Below, one piece after another: positions 421 to 27,538 of a DNA stretch of 64,000 bases (positions are counted from its first letter, which is position 1; each line of letters opens with the position of its first letter). The notes under the pieces were generated by a model. It saw nothing but the letters and a program-made list of their open reading frames with translations. It ran no database searches and was not told the DNA's origin. The stretch covers positions 320,001 through 384,000 of the forward strand of contig OY970192.1 in the NCBI GenBank assembly GCA_963708135.1, in the 5' to 3' direction. This DNA is from an uncultured Gemmatimonadales bacterium (GTDB taxonomy: Bacteria; Gemmatimonadota; Gemmatimonadetes; Longimicrobiales; RSA9). The translations under genes and the position numbers were made by a program.

Positions 421-2838
421 ATGCTTTCGATGCTCGCCTCCCTCCGCCACGCGCTGCGCGGACTCCGCAGGACCCCCTCCTTCTCCATCCCCGCCATTCT
501 CGTGCTCGCCGTCGGCATCGGCGCGAGCGTGGCGGTCTACGGCGTGGTGGATGCGATCCTGTTCCGGCCGCTCGACATCCCTGACGCGGATCGCGTGGCC
601 ACGATCTGCGAGACCAACCCGGCGGCTGGCGACTACTGCTCGGTGTCCACCCCGGACCTCGTGGACTGGGCCCGCGCCGGCGGCGTGTTCGACGCGATCG
701 GCGCCGCGCGCACGGAGTCGATGGCGCTGCGTACCGCGCGCGGGGCGGCGGGCGTGAACGTCGGGATCGCGATGCCTGGCTTCCTCCGCGCCGTGGGCGC
801 ATCGGTGGCGCGCGGGCGGATGCTCGTGGACGCGGACGGCCCACCGGCCGGGGACGGCAGGACGGTCGTGGTGAGCGATGAGTTCTGGCGCTCCGAGCTG
901 GGCGGCGCGCCGGACGTGCTCGGCCGGACGATCGTGCTGGACGGGAAGCGCTACGCGGTGGTCGGCGTGCTCCGCCCCGGCACGGCGATTCCGCGCCTCG
1001 GCGGCGTGCGCGTCTGGATGCCGCTGCCATGGGACCCGGCCACCCCCGCGAACCGCGACTGGCGCGGCTTCGTGGCCGCCGCCCACCTCGCGCCGGGTGT
1101 GAGCATGGCGCGCGCGCAGGCCCGCCTCCGCGCGACCCAGGTCGCGCTGGCCGCCGCCTACCCGGACGCCGTGCGCGGCTGGGGGGTGGACGTGCACGGG
1201 ATGCGCGAGCTCATCGTGCGCGGCGCGCGCCCGCTGCTGCTCGCGTTCCTCGCCGCCGTCGCGCTCGTCCTGCTGCTCGTGTGCGCCAACGTGGCGGGGC
1301 TCCTGCTCGCGCGCGCCACCGCCCGGGAGAGGGAGATGGCGGTGCGCTTCGCCCTGGGTGCCGGGCGCGGGCGGCTCGTCGGGCAGCTGCTCGTCGAGAG
1401 CGTGGTCCTGTCGGTGCTGGGCGGGGCGCTCGGCGCGCTCCTGGCCGGCTGGGGCGTGGACGCGTTCCGCGCGCTCGCGCCCGCCGACATCCCGCGCCTG
1501 GACGAGGTCGCGGTGGACGGACGGCTGCTCCTCGCGGCCGCTGCCCTTTCCCTCGGGGCCGGCGTGCTCGTCGGACTCCTGCCGGCCCTCTCGCTCGGCA
1601 CGCCCCGCACCGCCCAGGTGTTCCGCGCCGGGCGCGGCTCATCGGCGGACCGGCGCACGCGCGCCGCGCGCCGGGCCCTCGTGGCCGGCCAGCTCGCGCT
1701 CGCGCTCGTGCTCGTCACCAGCGCCGGCCTGCTGCTGCGCAGCTTCTCCAACATGCTCGACTGGCGGCCCGGCTTCGACACGGACCATCTGCTCACCTTC
1801 TGGACCGTGGCCTCGCCCGGGAAGTACCCGCAGCCGGCGCAGGCGCTCGGCTTCTACGACCGCGTGGGCGCCGCGCTGCGCGCGCAGCCTGCGGTGCGCT
1901 CGGTCGGCACGGTGTCCGCCGGCCCGCTCTTCGGCGGTGGCGACGGCCGCACGCCCATCCTCGTCGCGGGGCGGGGCTGGACGCGGCAGGAGGCGCCGCG
2001 CGTGGCCTGGTACGACGCGGGCCCCGACTACTTCCCCACGCTCGGCCTGCCCCTCCTGCGTGGCCGGCTGTTCGGTCCCGACGACGACGCCGGCTCGCCC
2101 ACCGTCGTCGTGATCAACCACGCCATGGCCGAGCGCTACTGGCCGGGGCGGGACCCGATCGGCGCGACGCTCTCGCTGCCCGAGCTCGACAGCGTGCCCA
2201 CGGTCCGCGTCGTCGGCGTCGTGGGAGACGTGAAGCCGTTCCTGCCCGACGCGCCGACGGAGCCCGAGCTGTACTTCTCGAATCGCCAGCGCACCCGCTT
2301 TGCGACGTACTTCGTGGTCCGGACCGACGGCGACCCCGCCGCCCTCGCTCCCGCCGTGCGCGCCGCGCTCGCCGGCGTCGATCCCGACGCCGAGGCCTCG
2401 CACCTCGGCACCATGCGGAGCCACATCGGCGGCCAGCTCGTGCGCCCGCGCTTCGAGATGCTCCTCGCCGCCGTCTTCGCCGCCATCGCGCTGCTCCTCG
2501 GCATCATCGGCGTGTACGGCGTGATCGCCTACACCATCGAGGCCCGCGCCAGCGAGATCGGCGTCCGCCTCGCCCTCGGCGCCACTCCCGCCGGCGTGAT
2601 CCTCTGGGTCCTCGGCGATGCGGGGCGCATGATCGCCGCCGGCTGCCTCGCGGGCCTCGGCGGCGCGCTCCTCTTCGGCCGCCTGCTCGCCGGCATGATC
2701 CACGGCGTCTCGGGCCACGACCCCGCCGTGCTCCTCGGCGCCGCGGGCCTCCTCACGCTCGGCGCCCTCGCCGCCGCGCTCCGCCCCGCGCTGCGGGCGG
2801 GCCGCCTGGACCCTATGGTGACGCTCCGGAACGAGTAG
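421..2838 (+). CDS. ADOP-family (duplicated MacB/FtsX) ABC transporter permease
   Basis: LRHALRGLRRTPSFS..LAVGIGAS N-terminus; LLLVCANVAGLLLARATAREREMAVRFALGA and EIGVRLALGA repeats; ends DPMVTLRNE. Start moved to ATG 421. Confidence 0.9.
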   Translation: MLSMLASLRHALRGLRRTPSFSIPAILVLAVGIGASVAVYGVVDAILFRPLDIPDADRVATICETNPAAGDYCSVSTPDLVDWARAGGVFDAIGAARTESMALRTARGAAGVNVGIAMPGFLRAVGASVARGRMLVDADGPPAGDGRTVVVSDEFWRSELGGAPDVLGRTIVLDGKRYAVVGVLRPGTAIPRLGGVRVWMPLPWDPATPANRDWRGFVAAAHLAPGVSMARAQARLRATQVALAAAYPDAVRGWGVDVHGMRELIVRGARPLLLAFLAAVALVLLLVCANVAGLLLARATAREREMAVRFALGAGRGRLVGQLLVESVVLSVLGGALGALLAGWGVDAFRALAPADIPRLDEVAVDGRLLLAAAALSLGAGVLVGLLPALSLGTPRTAQVFRAGRGSSADRRTRAARRALVAGQLALALVLVTSAGLLLRSFSNMLDWRPGFDTDHLLTFWTVASPGKYPQPAQALGFYDRVGAALRAQPAVRSVGTVSAGPLFGGGDGRTPILVAGRGWTRQEAPRVAWYDAGPDYFPTLGLPLLRGRLFGPDDDAGSPTVVVINHAMAERYWPGRDPIGATLSLPELDSVPTVRVVGVVGDVKPFLPDAPTEPELYFSNRQRTRFATYFVVRTDGDPAALAPAVRAALAGVDPDAEASHLGTMRSHIGGQLVRPRFEMLLAAVFAAIALLLGIIGVYGVIAYTIEARASEIGVRLALGATPAGVILWVLGDAGRMIAAGCLAGLGGALLFGRLLAGMIHGVSGHDPAVLLGAAGLLTLGALAAALRPALRAGRLDPMVTLRNE

Positions 2839-2857
2839 GGATTGACCACCGCTCCGC

Positions 2858-3078
2858 CTACGGCGAGTCCAGCAGCTTCAGCGCCTCCTTGTAGCGCCGC
2901 AGCCGCTCGACGCCTTGTCGGTGATGGTCTCGATCCGCGTGACGTCGAGGTTGTCCAGGAGGTCCGCCCGCTTCACCCTCCGCGCGATCGGGTGCGCCGC
3001 CGCGCGCTGCACGAAGGCCATGTACTCCTCCCCGTGCTCGCGGCGCCACGTCAGCGCCTCGACGGCGGAGATGGCCAT
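2858..3078 (-). pseudogene. C-terminal fragment of an HD-domain (RelA/SpoT hydrolase-like) protein, frameshifted
   Basis: VEALT..GEEYMAFVQRAAAHPIARRVKRADLLDNLDVTR continues in another frame as VERLRRYKEALKLL after a 1-nt loss near 2913. The N-terminal HD half is absent. Confidence 0.7.
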
Positions 3079-21028: not shown

Positions 21029-21500
21029 GGTGCCGTCCTCCTCGGGATCCGAGCGCAATGTAGCAGGCCCGGCAAGGGGGCGGTGGTCCGCGCGCCGGCG
21101 GCCGGGGCGGTTGGGGGGGCGGGGTTGGCCGGCGGGCGTGGGCGGGGTCGGCTGGGGCGGTGGGGGGGCCGGCGGCCGGGGCGGGGGCGGCGGTGGCCGG
21201 GGCGGGGCGAGCGAAATCGGGAAATGGAGGTCTGCGCGGGGCACCGAATCCCGATTTCGATCGGGTTCCGAGTCGAACTCGCGCAACGGACCGGTGGTGG
21301 GCCTGTCGCGAGGCCCGCTATTGCTCGGTTTCCGAGACGAATCGGGATCCCGGGCGGACCGCCTGTGTCGAGTGCGCGATTCTGATCGCCCGCCCACCGC
21401 GCTCACCCGCATACAGCCTTGTATCCCAGAGCGCTGCCCGCTAGTATTGCCTACAATATCGGGGGGCCGGGCCCCGAGCGCGGGAGGCGCGGAGCCGGGC

Positions 21501-21610
21501 CCGCGCCCGGATCCGCGCCCCAGCCCCGGGCCCCGGATCCGCGCCCCGGCCCCGCGCCCGGGGGCCGCGCCCCGGCCCCGCGCCCGGATCCGCGCCCCAG
21601 CCCCGGGCCC
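21501..21610. repeat. GC-rich tandem repeat, about 26-bp unit x4
   Basis: GGATCCGCGCCCC(A/G)GCCCCG-type units at 21509, 21535, about 21561 and 21586. Confidence 0.75.
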
Positions 21611-21688
21611 GGGTCCCGAGCGGGAGGCGCGGCCCCGAGCCCTGAGCCACAGCCGCGCCCGCAGCCCCGAACCCCGGAGACGACCTCC

Positions 21689-23386
21689 ATGCGCAGGATG
21701 CTTCCCCTCGCCGCCGCCGCCGCCCTGGCCGTCCTCCTCCTCGCCGCCTGCGCGCGCGGGCCGACCTACGACGTCGTCATCCGCGGCGGCACGGTCTACG
21801 ACGGGAGCGGCGCGGAGCCGGTGCGCGCGGATGTGGGGATCCTGGGCGACAGCGTGGCGGCGGTCGGGGATCTGTCGGGGGCGCAGGCGGACCGGGTGGT
21901 GGACGCGGCGGGGATGGCGGTGGCGCCGGGCTTCATCAACATGCTGTCGTGGGCGGTGGAGCCGCTGATCGCGGATGGGCGCTCGCAGAGCGACATCCGG
22001 CAGGGGGTCACGCTGGAGGTGTTCGGCGAGGGGGACTCGTGGGGGCCGTGGTCGGACAGCATGAAGGTGCTGATGAAGGCGCAGCAGGGGGACATCAAGT
22101 ACCCGATCTCCTGGACGACGCTGGGCGAGTACCTGGACTTCATGCAGAAGAAGGGGGTGAGCCCGAACATCGCGTCGTTCGTGGGGGCGGCCACGGTGCG
22201 GGAGGACGTGGTCGGCTTCGACGACCGCGCGCCGTCGCCGGCGGAGCTGGACTCGATGCGCGCGCTGGTGGACCGGGCCATGGAGGAGGGCGCGCTGGGG
22301 GTCGGCTCGGCGCTGATCTACGCGCCCGGCACGTACGCGAAGACGCCCGAGCTCGCGGCGCTGGCGAAGGAGGCCGGGAAGTACGGCGGCATGTACATCT
22401 CGCACATGCGCAGCGAGGGGCCGTTCTTGCTCGAGGGGGTGGATGAGTTGCTGACGATCGCGAAGGAGGCGAACGTGCCGGCGGAGATCTACCATCTGAA
22501 GGCGAGCGGTCGCGAGAACTGGGGCAAGATGGACGCGCTGATCGCGAAGGTGGACTCGGCGCGCAAGGCGGGGCTGCACATCACGGCGGACATGTACATG
22601 TACCGCGCGGGGGCGGCGGGGCTGGATGCGGCGATGCCCACGCGGGTGCAGGAGGGCGGGCTCGAGGCGTGGCGCAAGCGGCTTCAGGACCCCGCCATTC
22701 GCAAGCGGGTGGTGAGCGAGATGCGCTCGAAGCCGGTCGGCTGGGAGAGCCTGATGCAGCAGTCGGGCTCGCCGGACCAGGTGCTGCTCATCGCCTTCAA
22801 GCAGGACTCGCTCAAGTACCTGACGGGCAAGACGCTGGCCGAGGTGGCGAAGATGTGGCACGAGAGTCCGGAGGACGCGGCCGTCGATCTGGTGATCAAG
22901 GATGACTCGCGCGTGGGCACCGCCTATTTCATCGCCAGCGCCGACAACCTGAGGAAGCAGGTGGCGCTGCCGTGGGTCAGCTTCTGCTCCGACGAGGGCT
23001 CCTACGCGCCGGAGGGCGTGTTCCTGAAGTCGAAGCCGCACCCGCGCGCCTACGGCACCTTCGCCCGCGTGCTCGGCAGGTACGTCCGCGACGAGCATGC
23101 CCTCACGCTGCAGGCCGCCATCCACAAGCTGGCGGGCCTGCCGGCGACGAACCTCAAGCTGCGCCGCCGGGGCTTCCTCAAGCCCGGGTACTACGCCGAC
23201 GTCGTCGTCTTCGACCCGAAGACCATCCAGGACCACGCCACGTACGACGAGCCGCAGCAGTACGCCACCGGCATGAAGGACGTGTTCGTGAACGGCGTCC
23301 AGGTGCTGAAGGATGGCGAGCACACCGGCGCCACGCCGGGCCGGGTCGTGCGCGGTCCGGGGTGGAAAGGGTGGTCGAAGAGCTGA
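21689..23386 (+). CDS. N-acyl-D-amino-acid deacylase (lipoprotein)
   Basis: Lipobox LAAC; YDVVIRGGTVYDGSG, APGFINM, HMRSEG, HPRAYGTFARVLG. Confidence 0.9.
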   Translation: MRRMLPLAAAAALAVLLLAACARGPTYDVVIRGGTVYDGSGAEPVRADVGILGDSVAAVGDLSGAQADRVVDAAGMAVAPGFINMLSWAVEPLIADGRSQSDIRQGVTLEVFGEGDSWGPWSDSMKVLMKAQQGDIKYPISWTTLGEYLDFMQKKGVSPNIASFVGAATVREDVVGFDDRAPSPAELDSMRALVDRAMEEGALGVGSALIYAPGTYAKTPELAALAKEAGKYGGMYISHMRSEGPFLLEGVDELLTIAKEANVPAEIYHLKASGRENWGKMDALIAKVDSARKAGLHITADMYMYRAGAAGLDAAMPTRVQEGGLEAWRKRLQDPAIRKRVVSEMRSKPVGWESLMQQSGSPDQVLLIAFKQDSLKYLTGKTLAEVAKMWHESPEDAAVDLVIKDDSRVGTAYFIASADNLRKQVALPWVSFCSDEGSYAPEGVFLKSKPHPRAYGTFARVLGRYVRDEHALTLQAAIHKLAGLPATNLKLRRRGFLKPGYYADVVVFDPKTIQDHATYDEPQQYATGMKDVFVNGVQVLKDGEHTGATPGRVVRGPGWKGWSKS

Positions 23387-23415
23387 GGGGGGGAGTGGGG
23401 GAGTGGGGGAGTGGG
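23387..23415. repeat. 8-nt GGGAGTGG short tandem repeat
   Basis: (GGGGAGTG)x3; related tracts at 20646-20672 and 40474-40555, inverted copy at 40711-40726. Confidence 0.75.
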
Positions 23416-23454
23416 TGATGTTCGCGGCGGCCGAACGTTCCCGGGGCCGTGTCT

Positions 23455-24552
23455 TCAGGAAGCTTTTCGGATGGCCGCGATGAGCTCCTGCTTGGACATC
23501 GCGCTGCGCCCCGGAATGTCCAGGTCCTGGGCCCGCTCGTAGAGCGCTGTCTTCGTCTCCTTCTTCAGCTCGGCGGCCGAGGGCGCCGCGCGGTCACCTC
23601 GCGCCGCCGCGTTGCCGCCGACCGTCGTCGCCGCCCGCTGGCCGGCGGCGCGCCGCCTGGCCGCGCGCTTCGGCCGCTTCGCCTTGCCCTCGGCGGCGCG
23701 CAGGCTCTGCTTGATCACCTGCATGAGGTCGATCACGCCGGCCTCGGCCTCCTCCTCCTCCTCCTCGACGGGCTCGGGCGCCACCACGTCCTCTCCCTTC
23801 CGCTTCTTCCTGCGCACGAGGTCGATCAGGCGGCGGGCGGCGTCGTCCTCGAGCTCGGTCGTCTCGATGTCCGGCTTCTCGAGCTTGCGGATCGTCTTCT
23901 CGAGGCGGCGCCGGGCGGCGACGTCGCCCTTGCCGGTCCCGGGCAGGCCGACGGCCTCCGGCGCGCGCACCTCGTCGGCGAAGCGCAGCGTCTCGGCGCG
24001 CAGGATGCCGTTCTCGGCCAGGATGGCGACGAGGTACTCCTTGCCGCGCATGACGAAGGTCGCGATGCCGGCCCGGCCGCGCTTCTCCATCGTCTCCGCC
24101 AGCAGCCGGTAGGCCTTGGTGGACTCGCCGCCGGGCGTGAGGAAGTAGGCGCGCTCGAAGAGGATCGGGTCGATCTGCTCGGCGGGCACGAAGCGGCGCA
24201 GGTCGATGTCGCGCGAGCGCTCGGGGGCGAGGGCCTCGAGCTCGTCGTCGGAGACGAGGACGAAGCGGCCGTCGTCGAGCTCGTAGCCGCGCACGATCTC
24301 CTCGGGCGGCACGTCCTTCCCCGTCTCCGGATCGTAGTAGCGGCGCCGGAGGGGCGTGCCGTCGGGGGCGAGCATGCGCAGCGAGACGCGCTGCGACCGG
24401 TTGGCGGGGAAGAGGTTCACCGGAATGCTGACCAGCCCGAAGGTGATCGTCCCGGACCAGAAGGCGCGGGCGCGGACCTCGTCCTCGTCGAGCGCGTCCG
24501 TCGCACGCCGGCGGTGGCTCTGGCGGACGGCGCCCGTCTCGTCACGCGGCAT
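23455..24552 (-). CDS. ku: NHEJ Ku protein with basic tail and C-terminal Rho_N/HeH-like domain
   Basis: RAFWSGTITFGLVSIPV, IVRGYE, KAYRLL, VIDLMQVIKQSL; tail TKTALYERAQDLDIPGRSAMSKQELIAAI. Confidence 0.92.
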   Translation of the reverse strand: MPRDETGAVRQSHRRRATDALDEDEVRARAFWSGTITFGLVSIPVNLFPANRSQRVSLRMLAPDGTPLRRRYYDPETGKDVPPEEIVRGYELDDGRFVLVSDDELEALAPERSRDIDLRRFVPAEQIDPILFERAYFLTPGGESTKAYRLLAETMEKRGRAGIATFVMRGKEYLVAILAENGILRAETLRFADEVRAPEAVGLPGTGKGDVAARRRLEKTIRKLEKPDIETTELEDDAARRLIDLVRRKKRKGEDVVAPEPVEEEEEEAEAGVIDLMQVIKQSLRAAEGKAKRPKRAARRRAAGQRAATTVGGNAAARGDRAAPSAAELKKETKTALYERAQDLDIPGRSAMSKQELIAAIRKAS

Positions 24553-25330
24553 GGCGGCCCTCCTTCGCGCGGGCCAGGCTGGCCTCGAGCACGCCCGCGA
24601 GCGACTCCTCCGCCGCGGCCGGCTTCTCCTTCGGCCGCTCCAGGCGCACCGTCTTGCCGCTCGCCTTGGCCTCGATCAGCTCGAGCACGCGGTCGCGGTA
24701 GTCGTCGCGGTAGGCGGCGGGGTCGAAGTCGGCCTCGAGCGCCTCGATCAGACGCCCGGCCATCTCGACCTCCTTGCGGTCCGGCGCGCGCCCGCCCGGC
24801 CGCGGGAGCGCCGAGACCGGGACCACCTCGCCCGCGTGGCGCAGCGTGATCAGCATCAGGTGGTCGCCCTCCAGGCGCAGCGCCCCGACGTACTCCTTGC
24901 CCCGCATCACCCAGCGCGCGACGCCCTCCTCGCCGGACTTCCGGAGCGCCGCGACGAGCGCCGCGTACGCCCCTTCGTCGCCATCCGGGCCCAGGAAGTA
25001 GGGGCGGTCGTACCAGCGGTGGTCGATCTTCTCGGGCGGCACGAAGCGGGTGATCTCGACGTCGCGCGAGGGCTTCGGCTCGACCTCCTCGAGTTCCTCG
25101 GGCTCGAGGATGACGAAGCGGCCGTCGTCCAGCTCGTAGCCGCGGCGGATCTCCTCGTACGGGACGACCTCATCCGTGCGCGGGTTCACCATGTGCTGCT
25201 TCACGGGGGTGCGGTCCCTCTCGTCGAGGAGGCGGAAATGGACCGTGCGGTCCTCGACCGCCGAGTACAGCTTGACGGGCACCGTCTCGCCGCCGACGCG
25301 CAGCACGGCCTTCCAGATCGCGCGCGCCAC
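24542..25330 (-). CDS. ku: second Ku protein (core only)
   Basis: ARAIWKA..VPVKLYSAV, IRRGYE, DRPYFLGP, FDPAAYRDDYRDRVLELIEAK. Confidence 0.92.
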   Translation of the reverse strand: MARAIWKAVLRVGGETVPVKLYSAVEDRTVHFRLLDERDRTPVKQHMVNPRTDEVVPYEEIRRGYELDDGRFVILEPEELEEVEPKPSRDVEITRFVPPEKIDHRWYDRPYFLGPDGDEGAYAALVAALRKSGEEGVARWVMRGKEYVGALRLEGDHLMLITLRHAGEVVPVSALPRPGGRAPDRKEVEMAGRLIEALEADFDPAAYRDDYRDRVLELIEAKASGKTVRLERPKEKPAAAEESLAGVLEASLARAKEGRHAA

Positions 25331-25333
25331 CGC

Positions 25334-25549
25334 TCAGCCCTCCGTCCCGCCGGCCGGCGCGCAGTCGGGGCAGAACACCTCGGCCTCGGCACGCACGACC
25401 ACGACGCACAGGGGGCAGACGGGGCCGTCGCAGGCGACGCAGCGGTACTCCACCTCCACCGCGTAGCGCTGCAGGCAGTGCTCGCAGACGTGCCAGCCGC
25501 CCGCCAGCCACCAGGGGCGGCGCTGCTGCTCGGTGGTTTCCCCTTCCAT
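25334..25549 (-). CDS. small 4x CxxC zinc-finger protein
   Basis: CEHC, CVAC, CPLC, CPDC in 71 aa; GGAGG RBS; stop 3 nt before the ku start. Confidence 0.8.
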   Translation of the reverse strand: MEGETTEQQRRPWWLAGGWHVCEHCLQRYAVEVEYRCVACDGPVCPLCVVVVRAEAEVFCPDCAPAGGTEG

Positions 25550-25591
25550 CGCTTGCCTCCCCGCTGCGGAGCGTTCCGGAGCGGGGAGGAG

Positions 25592-25606
25592 GCAAAATCC
25601 CTGCCG
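25592..25606 (-). promoter_or_regulatory. sigma54-type -24/-12 motif
   Basis: CGGCAGGGATTTTGC, 42 nt upstream of the Zn-finger gene. Confidence 0.55.
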
Positions 25607-25699
25607 ACGGCGGGGCGTTGCGAGCCCCGGCCAGTCCGGGGCGGTCGCCGCGTCGGCGGGAACTCCGGAGCGTGGCGGGTGGCGAGGAGGTCCGGCCCC

Positions 25700-27538
25700 C
25701 TACCGCCCGCGATCCCCGAGCGCCCCCAGCAGATAGACCAGATCCGCCGCCACGTCGGTCACCGGCTCGTTGGTGGAGTAGTCGCCGAGGTCGTCATGGT
25801 AGACGATGAAGCCGGTGTTCCAGGGGGCGTACTCGTCCGGGTGCAGCAGCCGGATCCCGAGCAGGCTGGAGTAGATCGAGCGGTAGACGGGGCCGTCCAC
25901 CACGCCGCCGGTGAGCAGCGACACGCCCAGCCGCTCCGAGACGATGGAGTGCGGGTCGGTCGGCGTATCGGCGCCCGCGGGGTAGCCGATGACGAAGGAG
26001 GTGCCCCACGGGTTGGTGCCGAAGAGCCAGTCGAGCGCGGCCTGCTCGAGAGGGCGGTAGCGAGGATCGCCGGTCATGCGCCGGTAGAGATACGCCTGGG
26101 TGGCGGCCGAGATGACGAGGTCGTTCGAGACCCAGATGAAGGGCACGCCGATGCGGAACCCGTTCCGCGCGTGGTCCGCCAGCCGCTCGAGGCCGTGGCG
26201 GTAGTACGCGGCCAGGGTGTCGCGCTCGGCGCCCCGGCTGTCCCGCCACAGCTCGTAGTGGCCGTCGTTCAGGAACGGGAACCACTCGTAGTGGCGGGCG
26301 GTGTCCGCGCCCATCCACGGCTTCACGGGCTGCCTTGCCGCGAAGGCGGCGGCCGCGCGCCGCAGCGCCGGCTGCCGCGACGTCGCGTACAGCTCGGCGG
26401 CGGCCAGCTCCATGTCATCGACCCAGTCCTGCTCCTCGTAGAAGTAGGGCGCGCGACCCGGCGCGGTCTGGCACACGCCGGGGTGCGCGAGCCCCAGCGC
26501 GTAGGCCTCGCCGGCCTTGCGCGCGAGGGTGTCCGCGAACGCCGGGTCGCGGGCGCGCAGCAGCCGGGCGCCGAGCGCCATGGCCGCGGCGAACTTGCCT
26601 GCCGTGTTGGCCAGCCCGTTCGAGCGGTTCCTGTGGCCGAGCAGCCCCTGCGGGTGTCCCGTGCACGGGTAGACCGGGCGGTAGCCGCCCTTTCCCCAGC
26701 CGTAGTCGGAGCTGTCGTCGGTGGGCAGGTCCGGGAAGGCGTGGTCGCGGTCGTCGCCGATCTGGTCCAGCAGGAGGTCCGGCCGCGGGTACATCTTCAC
26801 CAGCCACTCGAGACCGTGGCGCGCCTCGTCCAGCACGTCCGGCTCGCCGTTCGAGCCCGGCAGCCCATCCGCCTGGAAGCGGTCCGCGAACGCGCGCGGG
26901 TGGTCCCGGTATGCCTGCAGCAGCACGAACGTGGCGTGCCCCGAGGTGGTCACGTACTGAAGGTAGTCCGCGGCATCGGCCCAGCCGCCGGCCACGGGGA
27001 TGAAGCGCCCGGAGTCGGGATGGTCCACGAGGATCGCGTCGGTTCCCACGTGGACGGAGTCGTGGAACACCGGGTTCCAGCCGGAGCGCTGCTCGCGCAG
27101 GTAGGAGAGCAGCGTGTCCGCCGCGCCGCGCCAGGTGTCCGCCCCGATGTGCACGGGAGGCGACGTGTCCGCCGCCGCCACCACGCGGTAAGTCCCGCCG
27201 CGGCTGAGCGCCGAGAAGTCGAGGCGGTGCGTGGAGGCGCACGGGCCGAAGCCGCCGGTGGCCACGGCCGGGCTCGGCCCCAGCACCGTCCGGCCGCGCG
27301 CGTCCACCACGCGGAAGGTGCGCAGCACGCGCGGCACGGTCGAGCACGCCACCGCCACCTTCGGCGCACCGGGAAGGTAGCCGACGAGGTTGATCCGGAT
27401 CGCGGAGTGGCCGGTGCCCGCGGCGGCCACGCTGCCCCTTCCGCCGCCCCCTGCCGCGGAGGCTCGCGGGGAGCCGGCGGGGGAGAAGCGGGCGGCCAGC
27501 AGCGCCGCGAGCAGCAGTGGGAGGGGCGGGATCCTCAA
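25700..27538 (-). CDS. glycoside hydrolase family 9 with N-terminal Ig-like domain
   Basis: IRINLVGYLP, GGWADAADY, LFGTNPWG, YHDDLGDYSTNEP. Confidence 0.9.
   Translation of the reverse strand: MRIPPLPLLLAALLAARFSPAGSPRASAAGGGGRGSVAAAGTGHSAIRINLVGYLPGAPKVAVACSTVPRVLRTFRVVDARGRTVLGPSPAVATGGFGPCASTHRLDFSALSRGGTYRVVAAADTSPPVHIGADTWRGAADTLLSYLREQRSGWNPVFHDSVHVGTDAILVDHPDSGRFIPVAGGWADAADYLQYVTTSGHATFVLLQAYRDHPRAFADRFQADGLPGSNGEPDVLDEARHGLEWLVKMYPRPDLLLDQIGDDRDHAFPDLPTDDSSDYGWGKGGYRPVYPCTGHPQGLLGHRNRSNGLANTAGKFAAAMALGARLLRARDPAFADTLARKAGEAYALGLAHPGVCQTAPGRAPYFYEEQDWVDDMELAAAELYATSRQPALRRAAAAFAARQPVKPWMGADTARHYEWFPFLNDGHYELWRDSRGAERDTLAAYYRHGLERLADHARNGFRIGVPFIWVSNDLVISAATQAYLYRRMTGDPRYRPLEQAALDWLFGTNPWGTSFVIGYPAGADTPTDPHSIVSERLGVSLLTGGVVDGPVYRSIYSSLLGIRLLHPDEYAPWNTGFIVYHDDLGDYSTNEPVTDVAADLVYLLGALGDRGR

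Follow-up and report, generated by a model that had tools for sequence, protein, structure and literature searches.

A Zn-KuA-KuB operon of Gemmatimonadota and Acidobacteriota as a candidate heterodimeric Ku with a zinc-binding subunit

We analysed a 64-kb stretch of DNA from an uncultured Gemmatimonadales bacterium (hereafter the window; positions 320001-384000 of a single 5.45-Mb contig) and focused on an operon of three genes within it: a small gene for a 71-amino-acid, cysteine-rich protein (hereafter the Zn gene and the Zn protein) and two ku genes, which we call kuA and kuB. In genomes and metagenomes alike, every informative copy of the Zn gene is followed directly by a kuA orthologue, KuA and KuB fall into two separate and well-supported clades, and structure prediction places one copy of the Zn protein in contact with both Ku chains. 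We propose that the operon encodes a heterodimeric Ku with a zinc-binding subunit that would serve as gatekeeper or keystone of the Ku ring, transcribed as one unit from a sigma-54-type promoter and working with a LigD encoded elsewhere in the genome. We judge this proposal to be about evenly poised between right and wrong, and below we lay out the evidence for it together with the explanations that compete with it.

Three closely packed genes encode a four-CxxC protein and two Ku proteins

The open reading frame (ORF) listing for the window contains three consecutive ORFs on the minus strand, whose order of transcription is Zn gene, kuA, kuB. The features of the locus are as follows:

25591-25606, minus strand: putative -24/-12 (sigma-54-type) element CGGCAGGGATTTTGCC, in which CGGCAG-N5-TTGC occupies 25592-25606, 57 nt before the Zn start
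25334-25549, minus strand: Zn gene, encoding an acidic protein of 71 aa with four CxxC pairs (C22, C25, C37, C40, C45, C48, C60 and C63, all invariant), conserved W14 and D41 and a predicted two-zinc cross-braced fold
24542-25330, minus strand: kuA, encoding a 262-aa Ku with a GTG start, no extended basic tail and no FGLV loop (RVGGET stands there)
23455-24552, minus strand: kuB, encoding a Ku of 365 aa that is extended by 27 aa at the N-terminus, retains the FGLV loop and has a linker that is first acidic and then basic
23461-23571, minus strand: Rho_N/HeH domain of KuB, residues 328-364 (PF07498, 31.4 bits against a gathering cut-off of 24.9)

A gap of 3 nt (25331-25333) separates the Zn gene from kuA, kuA and kuB overlap by 11 nt (24542-24552), and inspection of the sequence finds a GGAGG-type Shine-Dalgarno ahead of each of the three starts. 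An earlier note on this DNA, made from the letters alone, had given the same gap and overlap, and both are exact. Its description of a 71-aa protein with four CxxC pairs, of a sigma54-type motif upstream and of a long Ku with a basic tail and a Rho_N/HeH-like C-terminus also proved accurate, the last of these by a PF07498 match above cut-off. Both Ku are full-length bacterial Ku according to TIGR02772 (KuA 252 bits, KuB 244.5 bits; cut-off 150), and both match PF02735 (129.7 and 151.7 bits, respectively; cut-off 25). The note had called KuA a 'core-only' Ku, which is right in that the extended basic tail is absent; KuA nevertheless spans the entire TIGR02772 model (positions 1-259), so that only the tail is missing.

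The Zn gene is strictly linked to kuA and kuB in two phyla

We searched 41 relatives, including the window genome, for the Zn gene at E<=0.01 and obtained a match in nine. One of these (L020 in G033; E 0.002, 33% identity) we judged to be a chance match, as no Ku lies nearby and tblastn at 1e-3 did not recover it. Five loci (L013, L014, L015, L017 and L018) carry the Zn gene, then a KuA orthologue, then a KuB orthologue. When 185,579 species genomes were scanned with an eight-sequence Zn alignment, 29 loci emerged, all of them in Gemmatimonadota or Acidobacteriota (Blastocatellia, Pyrinomonadaceae). The Zn-KuA-KuB order is complete at 26 of the 29, and the remainder consist of a contig that ends after Zn, a contig that ends after KuA and a degenerate remnant. 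A scan of JGI metagenomes with alignment A1 produced 80 loci, of which 53 are complete, 21 run from Zn through KuA to a contig end, five end right after Zn and one is too short. A KuA orthologue thus lies directly downstream of Zn at all 27 informative genome loci and all 74 informative metagenome loci, so the condition that the earlier note had set for its own refutation, Zn homologues without linkage to ku, clearly does not hold.

The distance from the Zn stop to the KuA start was between -1 and +7 nt at the 27 genome loci where it was measured, a spacing that suggests translational coupling of the Zn gene to kuA. Beyond Ku, no flanking gene is shared by more than eight of the 29 genome loci; genes for a histidine kinase, an ABC1 kinase, an ABC transporter, Crp, DoxX, DUF2231 and STAS are sporadic neighbours, each found at three to eight loci. 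No LigD was found within 4.5 kb of the Zn gene at the 80 metagenome loci or in the flanks of the 29 genome loci. The Zn gene occurs in two of 301 genomes in an even sample of the phylum versus six of 24 in the window's own family, and the module is therefore patchy.

Four of the genomes used here (G015, G016, G019 and G026) are unpublished. G019 supplies one of the nine Zn-positive relatives, one of the five complete operons among relatives and one row of alignment A1. The main conclusions hold without these genomes, namely the complete loci (26/29 and 53/80), the KuA-KuB pair of G020, discussed below, and the tree of Ku proteins, which uses none of them.

Two individual loci are recorded here for their structure. 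In G011, a remnant of the module (L062:2088-3578, equal to L019/L050) retains the C-terminal half of the Zn gene, embedded in a long reading frame, and after it only 71 codons from the beginning of kuA. At L029, in a Longimicrobiaceae metagenome-assembled genome, two opposite-strand genes at 1265-1896 (minus) lie between kuA (312-1097) and kuB (2065-3012) and split the operon by 967 nt; we named their products by eye as a PIN-domain VapC-like protein (131 aa) and an AbrB/SpoVT-like protein (79 aa).

KuA and KuB form separate clades with asymmetric sequences

We placed KuA and KuB in a careful maximum-likelihood tree of 82 Ku proteins, with support given as ultrafast bootstrap/SH-aLRT. The KuA clade (29 rows) is supported at 100/97 and the KuB clade (27 rows) at 100/100. 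In KuA and KuB alike, the Acidobacteriota copies form one clade nested among the Gemmatimonadota copies, which indicates that the two genes were inherited, or moved, together. The Sinorhizobium meliloti megaplasmids contribute four Ku, which form a clade of their own (100/99), outside both KuA and KuB. The KuA-KuB pair therefore appears to have arisen independently of Ku3 and Ku4 of S. meliloti, with the caveat that the S. meliloti branches are long. The tree also contains the sole Ku of G018 (L078; G018:C60:12990-13517), which groups as sister of the KuA clade (100/98); its branch is very long (1.09) and its composition deviant. No Zn match was found in the G018 genome, and this protein may be a KuA-like Ku that works alone.

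The two subunits differ in consistent ways. KuA always measures 259-263 aa and lacks an extended tail, whereas KuB measures 277-379 aa, is extended at its N-terminus and ends in a basic stretch; of the two, only KuB has the basic tail. The FGLV loop persists in KuB, as it does in relatives' single Ku, and is replaced throughout the KuA clade. In Mycobacterium tuberculosis Ku, residues L13 and V14 of this loop are reported to form the Ku-Ku stacking interface and to be needed for filaments and for survival (PMC12658125). At sequence level, the asymmetry that the earlier note had seen in the pair thus holds for three features, namely N-terminal extension, FGLV loop and basic tail. The HeH end is not a constant feature: nine of the ten Gemmatimonadota KuB proteins carry it, L049 being the exception, and all 17 from Acidobacteriota lack it. 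Including this end, 92-96% of the KuB length aligns with Ku from Streptomyces/Kitasatospora plasmids, at 32-38% identity. As a tail of this kind is known in Streptomyces Ku and is missing from Acidobacteriota KuB, it is neither new nor module-defining.

The Zn protein is predicted to be a two-zinc domain outside named families

An exhaustive profile search of 1.84 billion representatives recovered a Zn family of 487 clusters (at 50% identity) at E<=1e-3, or 215 clusters at E<=1e-10. Among the 150 matches listed, lengths range from 58 to 145 aa. Across 136 family sequences the eight cysteines never vary, and conservation of W14 and D41 is at least 90%; the median net charge of the family is -5. 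Where the source gives family members a name, that name is only 'hypothetical protein'. One member of 100 aa, P0165, comes from a cultured Planctomycetota organism, Aeoliella sp., and extends the family to a third phylum.

For the 71-aa protein itself, no Pfam or NCBIfam model reaches its cut-off; the best is FYVE_2, at 16.4 bits against a cut-off of 27.2, and the weak sub-threshold Pfam matches are to FYVE_2, PHF5 and RING-like models. An AlphaFold2 model has a mean pLDDT of 80.9, rising above 90 over residues 21-50. Comparing this model with the PDB by Foldseek gave no match at E<=1e-3. Structural alignment with VIA gave 2cjs_C as the top match (Z 4.7, root-mean-square deviation 2.7 over 50 residues); its best matches are RIM, Slp4 and FYVE zinc fingers, at Z 4.7-4.1 over about 50 residues, and several FYVE domains score Z 3.5-4.2. 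The tool itself notes that Z values below 5 are seen for common arrangements. The protein has in common with FYVE, RIM-Slp, PHD and RING domains the spacing CxxC-11-CxxC-4-CxxC-11-CxxC, with eight ligands in four pairs, but differs from the FYVE and RING families in that no family model scores above cut-off. From the structural matches and the cysteine spacing together, we read it as a predicted cross-braced two-zinc domain that is not a member of any named family.

Other resources returned little. A tblastn search of 72,556 plasmids gave no match to the Zn protein, no PADLOC model matches the Zn protein, KuA or KuB, and PHROGs has no match for the Zn protein. The ESM Atlas returned nothing but clusters named 'hypothetical protein'; Prok-RING_2 and B-box came up as weak leads (0.89-0.90). 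A full-text literature search found no description of a zinc protein partnered with a bacterial Ku.

A search restricted to longer proteins found a single 600-aa ENA protein, P0159, in which PF01068, PF04679 and PF21686 (the LigD ligase and polymerase) are followed, in frame, by a complete Zn domain. This sequence may be a true LigD-Zn fusion or may reflect a missed stop or a frameshift. Whether fused or separated by a missed stop, ligD is here directly upstream of a Zn gene.

One Zn protein is predicted to contact both Ku subunits at equivalent positions

We predicted the structure of a DNA-free complex of KuA (28-row alignment), residues 1-300 of KuB (26 rows), two zinc ions and, as the scored partner, the Zn protein (136 rows). 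Three runs gave ipSAE scores of 0.82, 0.79 and 0.78 (median 0.79), against 0.00-0.01 for three controls (best 0.01). The runs share at least 40% of their contacts, and the pLDDT of the partner is at least 69. Swapping KuB for an unrelated protein reduced the ipSAE to 0.01. A structure prediction including the small protein had been suggested in the earlier note, and in our runs that protein is predicted to bind both Ku chains at equivalent positions.

Confident contacts fall at residues 3, 5-6, 23, 25, 27, 29, 31-34, 43-45, 63, 109, 111 and 143 of KuA and at residues 31, 49, 53, 57-60, 70, 72, 83-95, 102, 134 and 169-171 of KuB. W14 and D41 are among the Zn residues closest to Ku, 29 of the 71 Zn residues contact Ku, and Arg or Lys makes up 12 of the 38 contact residues on the Ku side. 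Given the 25-26-residue offset between KuA and KuB, the contacts are at equivalent positions, which puts the partner on the pseudo-twofold axis. M. tuberculosis Ku numbering equals KuA numbering minus 1, and the bridge of the ring is where His35, Cys48 and Cys51 of that protein are placed (PMC12658125). Residues 24-63 of the KuA monomer model stretch out as an arm that lies between strands of the barrel; KuA 29-45 and KuB 57-72 would thus be the bridge arms. The barrel is contacted through R109 and Y111, in the strand 107-115, and R143, at the 142-145 turn. Bridge and barrel can both be touched from the axis most simply from inside the ring or at its mouth, so the contact lists suggest a probable location of the Zn protein within the DNA ring or at its entrance.

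Two small observations support the predicted interface. Contact positions are slightly more conserved than other sites in KuA and KuB, though not in single Ku, as detailed below. The KuA of G020, whose KuA-KuB pair lacks a Zn gene, departs from 56 otherwise invariant KuA columns at two sites only, K44S and P110A. K44 is a contact residue, and P110 lies between two contact residues.

In the mechanism that we propose, the three genes would be one transcription unit driven by the -24/-12 (sigma-54-type) promoter, and their products would constitute a three-protein DNA-end-binding module. KuA and KuB would form an obligate heterodimeric ring; a single asymmetric ligand on the dimer axis fits a heterodimer better than a homodimer. 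The 71-aa protein would fold around two zinc ions as a FYVE/RING-like cross-braced domain, and one copy, giving a presumed 1:1:1 complex, would lie on the pseudo-twofold axis against the same elements of both subunits: the bridge arms, the first strand and the DRPY and MRGK strands. Positioned in the ring or at its mouth, the Zn protein would act as an assembly keystone or as a gatekeeper that is displaced as the DNA end threads in. Together with the LigD encoded elsewhere, the module would join double-strand breaks.

A more specific version of this mechanism, which we regard as unlikely, is that the Zn protein is a zinc-thiolate plug in the DNA channel. The plug would template KuA-KuB assembly co-translationally and keep the ring closed to DNA until it is expelled, either by a DNA end or by desiccation or oxidative stress, through cysteine oxidation and zinc release. 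If true, bacterial end joining would gain its first intrinsic gatekeeper or redox switch, and an asymmetric Ku would have evolved a second time, independently of and in parallel with Ku70/80.

The same linkage and predicted binding would also be expected if the Zn protein were a true subunit of the heterodimer that lies outside the DNA path, there to steady the bridge as a clamp or to recruit LigD or another end-processing factor as an adaptor, with no role in gating. This is possible, although we lean clearly against it. Among the contacts are residues that are out of DNA reach in M. tuberculosis Ku (PMC12658125), and the arrangement in P0159, with LigD domains followed in frame by a Zn domain, is one that an adaptor would predict. 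P0159 is, however, a single sequence with a possible missed stop or frameshift, and LigD is absent from the neighbourhood of the Zn gene at the genome and metagenome loci described above. Moreover, contacts to the bridge arm and the barrel on both subunits, with 29 of 71 Zn residues buried, would be hard to achieve on the outer face.

It is improbable, in our estimate, that the Zn protein does not bind Ku at all and is instead a co-transcribed nucleic-acid-binding or regulatory zinc ribbon, such as an autoregulator or an RNA-binding factor, the predicted complex being an artefact. Small bacterial zinc-ribbon proteins are often regulators, the structural matches of the Zn protein are weak (VIA Z 4.7; no Foldseek match at E<=1e-3) and some KuA-KuB pairs occur without a Zn gene. 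The family is, however, acidic, with a median charge that is unusual for a nucleic-acid binder, and the Zn gene is tightly coupled to kuA at the loci measured. The gulf between the ipSAE of 0.79 and the 0.00-0.01 of the controls, and the presence of the conserved non-cysteine residues W14 and D41 at the interface, likewise argue for binding.

A -24/-12-type motif precedes the operon in both phyla

The motif (C/T)GGCA(G/A)-N5-TTGC lies upstream of the Zn gene in six of ten Gemmatimonadota copies, those of the window and five others. L022 and L024 share the window form, CGGCAG-N5-TTGC, while L030, L043 and L049 have TGGCA(G/A)-N5-TTGCC. As in a sigma-54 promoter, GG and GC stand 10 nt apart in a setting that resembles TGGCAC-N5-TTGC. 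In all 19 Acidobacteriota loci, TGGAAC-N5-(A/C)TGC is found about 30 nt before the start, in upstream DNA that is otherwise dissimilar. If this Acidobacteriota element is a -24/-12 promoter, the start about 12 nt past its GC element would leave almost no leader, and the message would be near-leaderless (L025-L048). The window genome has rpoN (one Sigma54_DBD match) and 22 strong Sigma54_activat matches. No sigma-70-like promoter and no intrinsic terminator are predicted within 23200-25800 of the window. From the motif and its conservation we infer that the operon may be sigma-54-dependent; a full-text literature search did not find sigma-54 control of ku described.

We considered two other readings of these motifs. 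We rejected the GGAAC of the Acidobacteriota motif as an EcfG-type element (GGAAC-N16-17-CGTT), as no CGTT occurs at N16-17. A -24/-12 regulon shared by the operon and LigD is unsupported, as the motif is not near any LigD locus.

LigD is encoded away from the operon

As the earlier note had stated, the window contains no ligD: no LigD polymerase or ligase domain occurs at genome coordinates 320001-384000. The genome as a whole carries three LigD loci with polymerase and ligase domains, at about 0.52, 1.51 and 5.28 Mb, as well as a further ATP-dependent ligase at 3.20 Mb. Its four Ku comprise the tandem pair, one Ku at 1.506 Mb beside LigD and one at 5.279 Mb beside LigD. A LigD partner is therefore present in the genome, none adjoins the operon and the nearest is about 175 kb away. 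This nearest LigD (G000:C1:520091-521925) has polymerase and then ligase domains and no Ku beside it; unpaired as it is, it is a candidate partner for the tandem Ku pair. In G017 and G036, the tandem pair provides the only Ku matches in the genome, and G017 has a single LigD polymerase match, on a different contig from the pair. An organism with LigD can thus have this pair as its only Ku.

A genome with three LigD loci and four Ku might also use KuA and KuB as separate, co-expressed homodimers that serve different end types or different LigD partners, with the Zn protein attached to one of them only. Most characterised bacterial Ku are homodimeric (PMC6379672, PMC12658125). We consider such a division of labour quite improbable, as KuA and KuB are co-inherited in fixed order across two phyla and their trees agree, contacts of the Zn protein are predicted on both chains and the score is lost when KuB is replaced. 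KuA, moreover, has neither the stacking loop nor the DNA-binding tail that homodimeric Ku are reported to use (PMC12658125, PMC6379672).

Very improbable, to our minds, is a module that moves between soil phyla as a mobile or defence end-binding cassette, giving Gam-like end protection or anti-phage activity, and has no part in chromosomal break repair. The patchy occurrence of the Zn gene (2/301 phylum-wide, 6/24 in its own family), the nesting of Acidobacteriota copies within Gemmatimonadota copies, which suggests transfer, the lack of conserved flanking genes and the existence of Ku-like proteins in phages (phrog_4873) would all suit such a cassette. It would not explain why the pair is the only Ku alongside a genomic LigD in G017 and G036; in addition, none of the three proteins matches a PADLOC model, the 72,556 plasmids contain no Zn match and the shared flanks include no integrase or phage genes.

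Evidence that weighs against the proposed complex

Several observations count against a heterodimeric Ku with a zinc-binding subunit expressed from a sigma-54-type promoter, and all the evidence on which that proposal draws is computational. First, the Zn gene can be absent. In G020, a genome that is 92% complete, the gene ahead of the KuA-KuB pair is for isocitrate lyase and stops 22 nt short of kuA, and a search of the whole genome gave no Zn match; the unpublished G016 likewise has KuA-KuB without a Zn gene. G015 and G022 also have the Ku pair, on contigs that end at or inside kuA and are uninformative for Zn. The dedicated zinc accessory factor of the earlier note is thus favoured by strict linkage and by predicted binding, but it is not obligatory.

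Second, single promoter matches are weak, with 5-16 of 200 shuffles scoring equally well, and four of the ten Gemmatimonadota copies have no clear motif. The window contains no Sigma54_activat gene. In a scan of the whole genome, YGGCA-N6-TTGC gave 56 matches versus about 90 expected from base composition and was absent near the three LigD loci and the extra ligase.

Third, the structural model has limits. The ipSAE mark, which is reached by 116 of 157 solved complexes and two of 215 mismatched pairs, is only roughly calibrated here, because we supplied our own alignments and let two zinc ions ride along. As Ku dimers have already been solved, the predictor may have reproduced the Ku-Ku part from known structures. 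The KuA contacts D27 and T29 correspond to D26-D28 of M. tuberculosis Ku, which are reported to lie at the protomer interface, out of reach of DNA (PMC12658125). Finally, contact positions are more conserved than other positions in KuA (0.81 versus 0.74) and KuB (0.84 versus 0.78), compared with 0.58 versus 0.60 in single Ku, but this excess is small (permutation p = 0.034).

Other features of the locus

Long plus-strand ORFs opposite the operon are shadow frames, typical of DNA with 73% G+C. Just past the kuB stop, in the intergenic space between two convergent genes, the direct repeat CCCACTC occurs three times at 23385-23420. The ORF convergent with kuB, which encodes an amidohydrolase-like protein of 655 aa, has a repeat-like beginning rich in Pro, Gly, Arg and Ala (21419-21700), and its true start is probably further downstream, near MRRMLPLAAAA.

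Relation to known Ku systems

Bacterial non-homologous end joining (NHEJ), as taught, is a two-protein system, made up of a Ku homodimer and LigD. To our knowledge, Ku3-Ku4 of Sinorhizobium is the only proposed exception, and its support comes from genetics alone. The module described here resembles the canonical system in that both KuA and KuB are full-length by TIGR02772, LigD is present in the genome and KuB retains both the FGLV loop and a C-terminal arm that is basic. It differs in having two distinct subunits, one of which lacks the L13/V14-type stacking loop, and in having a third, predicted zinc-binding component without a counterpart.

In S. meliloti, Ku3-Ku4 carries out stress-induced NHEJ, and a heterodimer was proposed from genetics (Dupuy et al., Nucleic Acids Res 2019, PMC6379672). 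Ku3-Ku4 and KuA-KuB are alike in having two ku genes per operon, one product with a lysine-rich or basic tail and the other tailless, and in being co-maintained across genomes, with LigD elsewhere and a proposed promoter for an alternative sigma factor. The two pairs are nevertheless not orthologous, since Ku3 and Ku4 cluster with the other two plasmid Ku of S. meliloti (100/99). The gene order of ku3-ku4 (L055 1459-2343 and 2355-3173) is reversed, with the tailed Ku3 first, and no cysteine-rich ORF lies upstream of ku3. Their promoter is described as EcfG/RpoE2 in the same paper, in contrast to the -24/-12 motif here.

KuB also invites comparison with the Streptomyces Ku that carry a C-terminal HEH domain and with eukaryotic Ku70, which has a C-terminal SAP domain (PMC11936186, citing Aravind and Koonin 2001): it matches Rho_N/HeH and aligns with plasmid Ku of Streptomyces over nearly its full length. 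With the eukaryotic Ku accessory factors the likeness is one of concept only, that of a small dedicated factor docking on a Ku heterodimer. These factors, APLF, XLF, PAXX and CYREN/MRI, bind through short peptide motifs on vWA domains. We found no relation in sequence or fold between them and the Zn protein; bacterial Ku are described as lacking vWA domains (PMC12658125), and a PBZ zinc finger of APLF is mentioned in PMC11936186.

The idea of a Ku pair is therefore precedented in Sinorhizobium and the HeH tail in Streptomyces. What appears to be new is an independently evolved asymmetric Ku pair, a linked two-zinc partner that is predicted to sit on its dyad and a conserved -24/-12 motif. The proteins are small and easy to express, which makes the question directly testable. 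Next to Ku3-Ku4, this would be a second pair of Ku with an evolutionary origin of its own, conserved across two soil phyla that are abundant, and if the 1:1:1 complex is real, it would offer a simple bacterial model for why Ku rings become asymmetric, for how access of DNA ends to Ku is controlled and for how end joining may be switched by stress through a sigma-54-type promoter.

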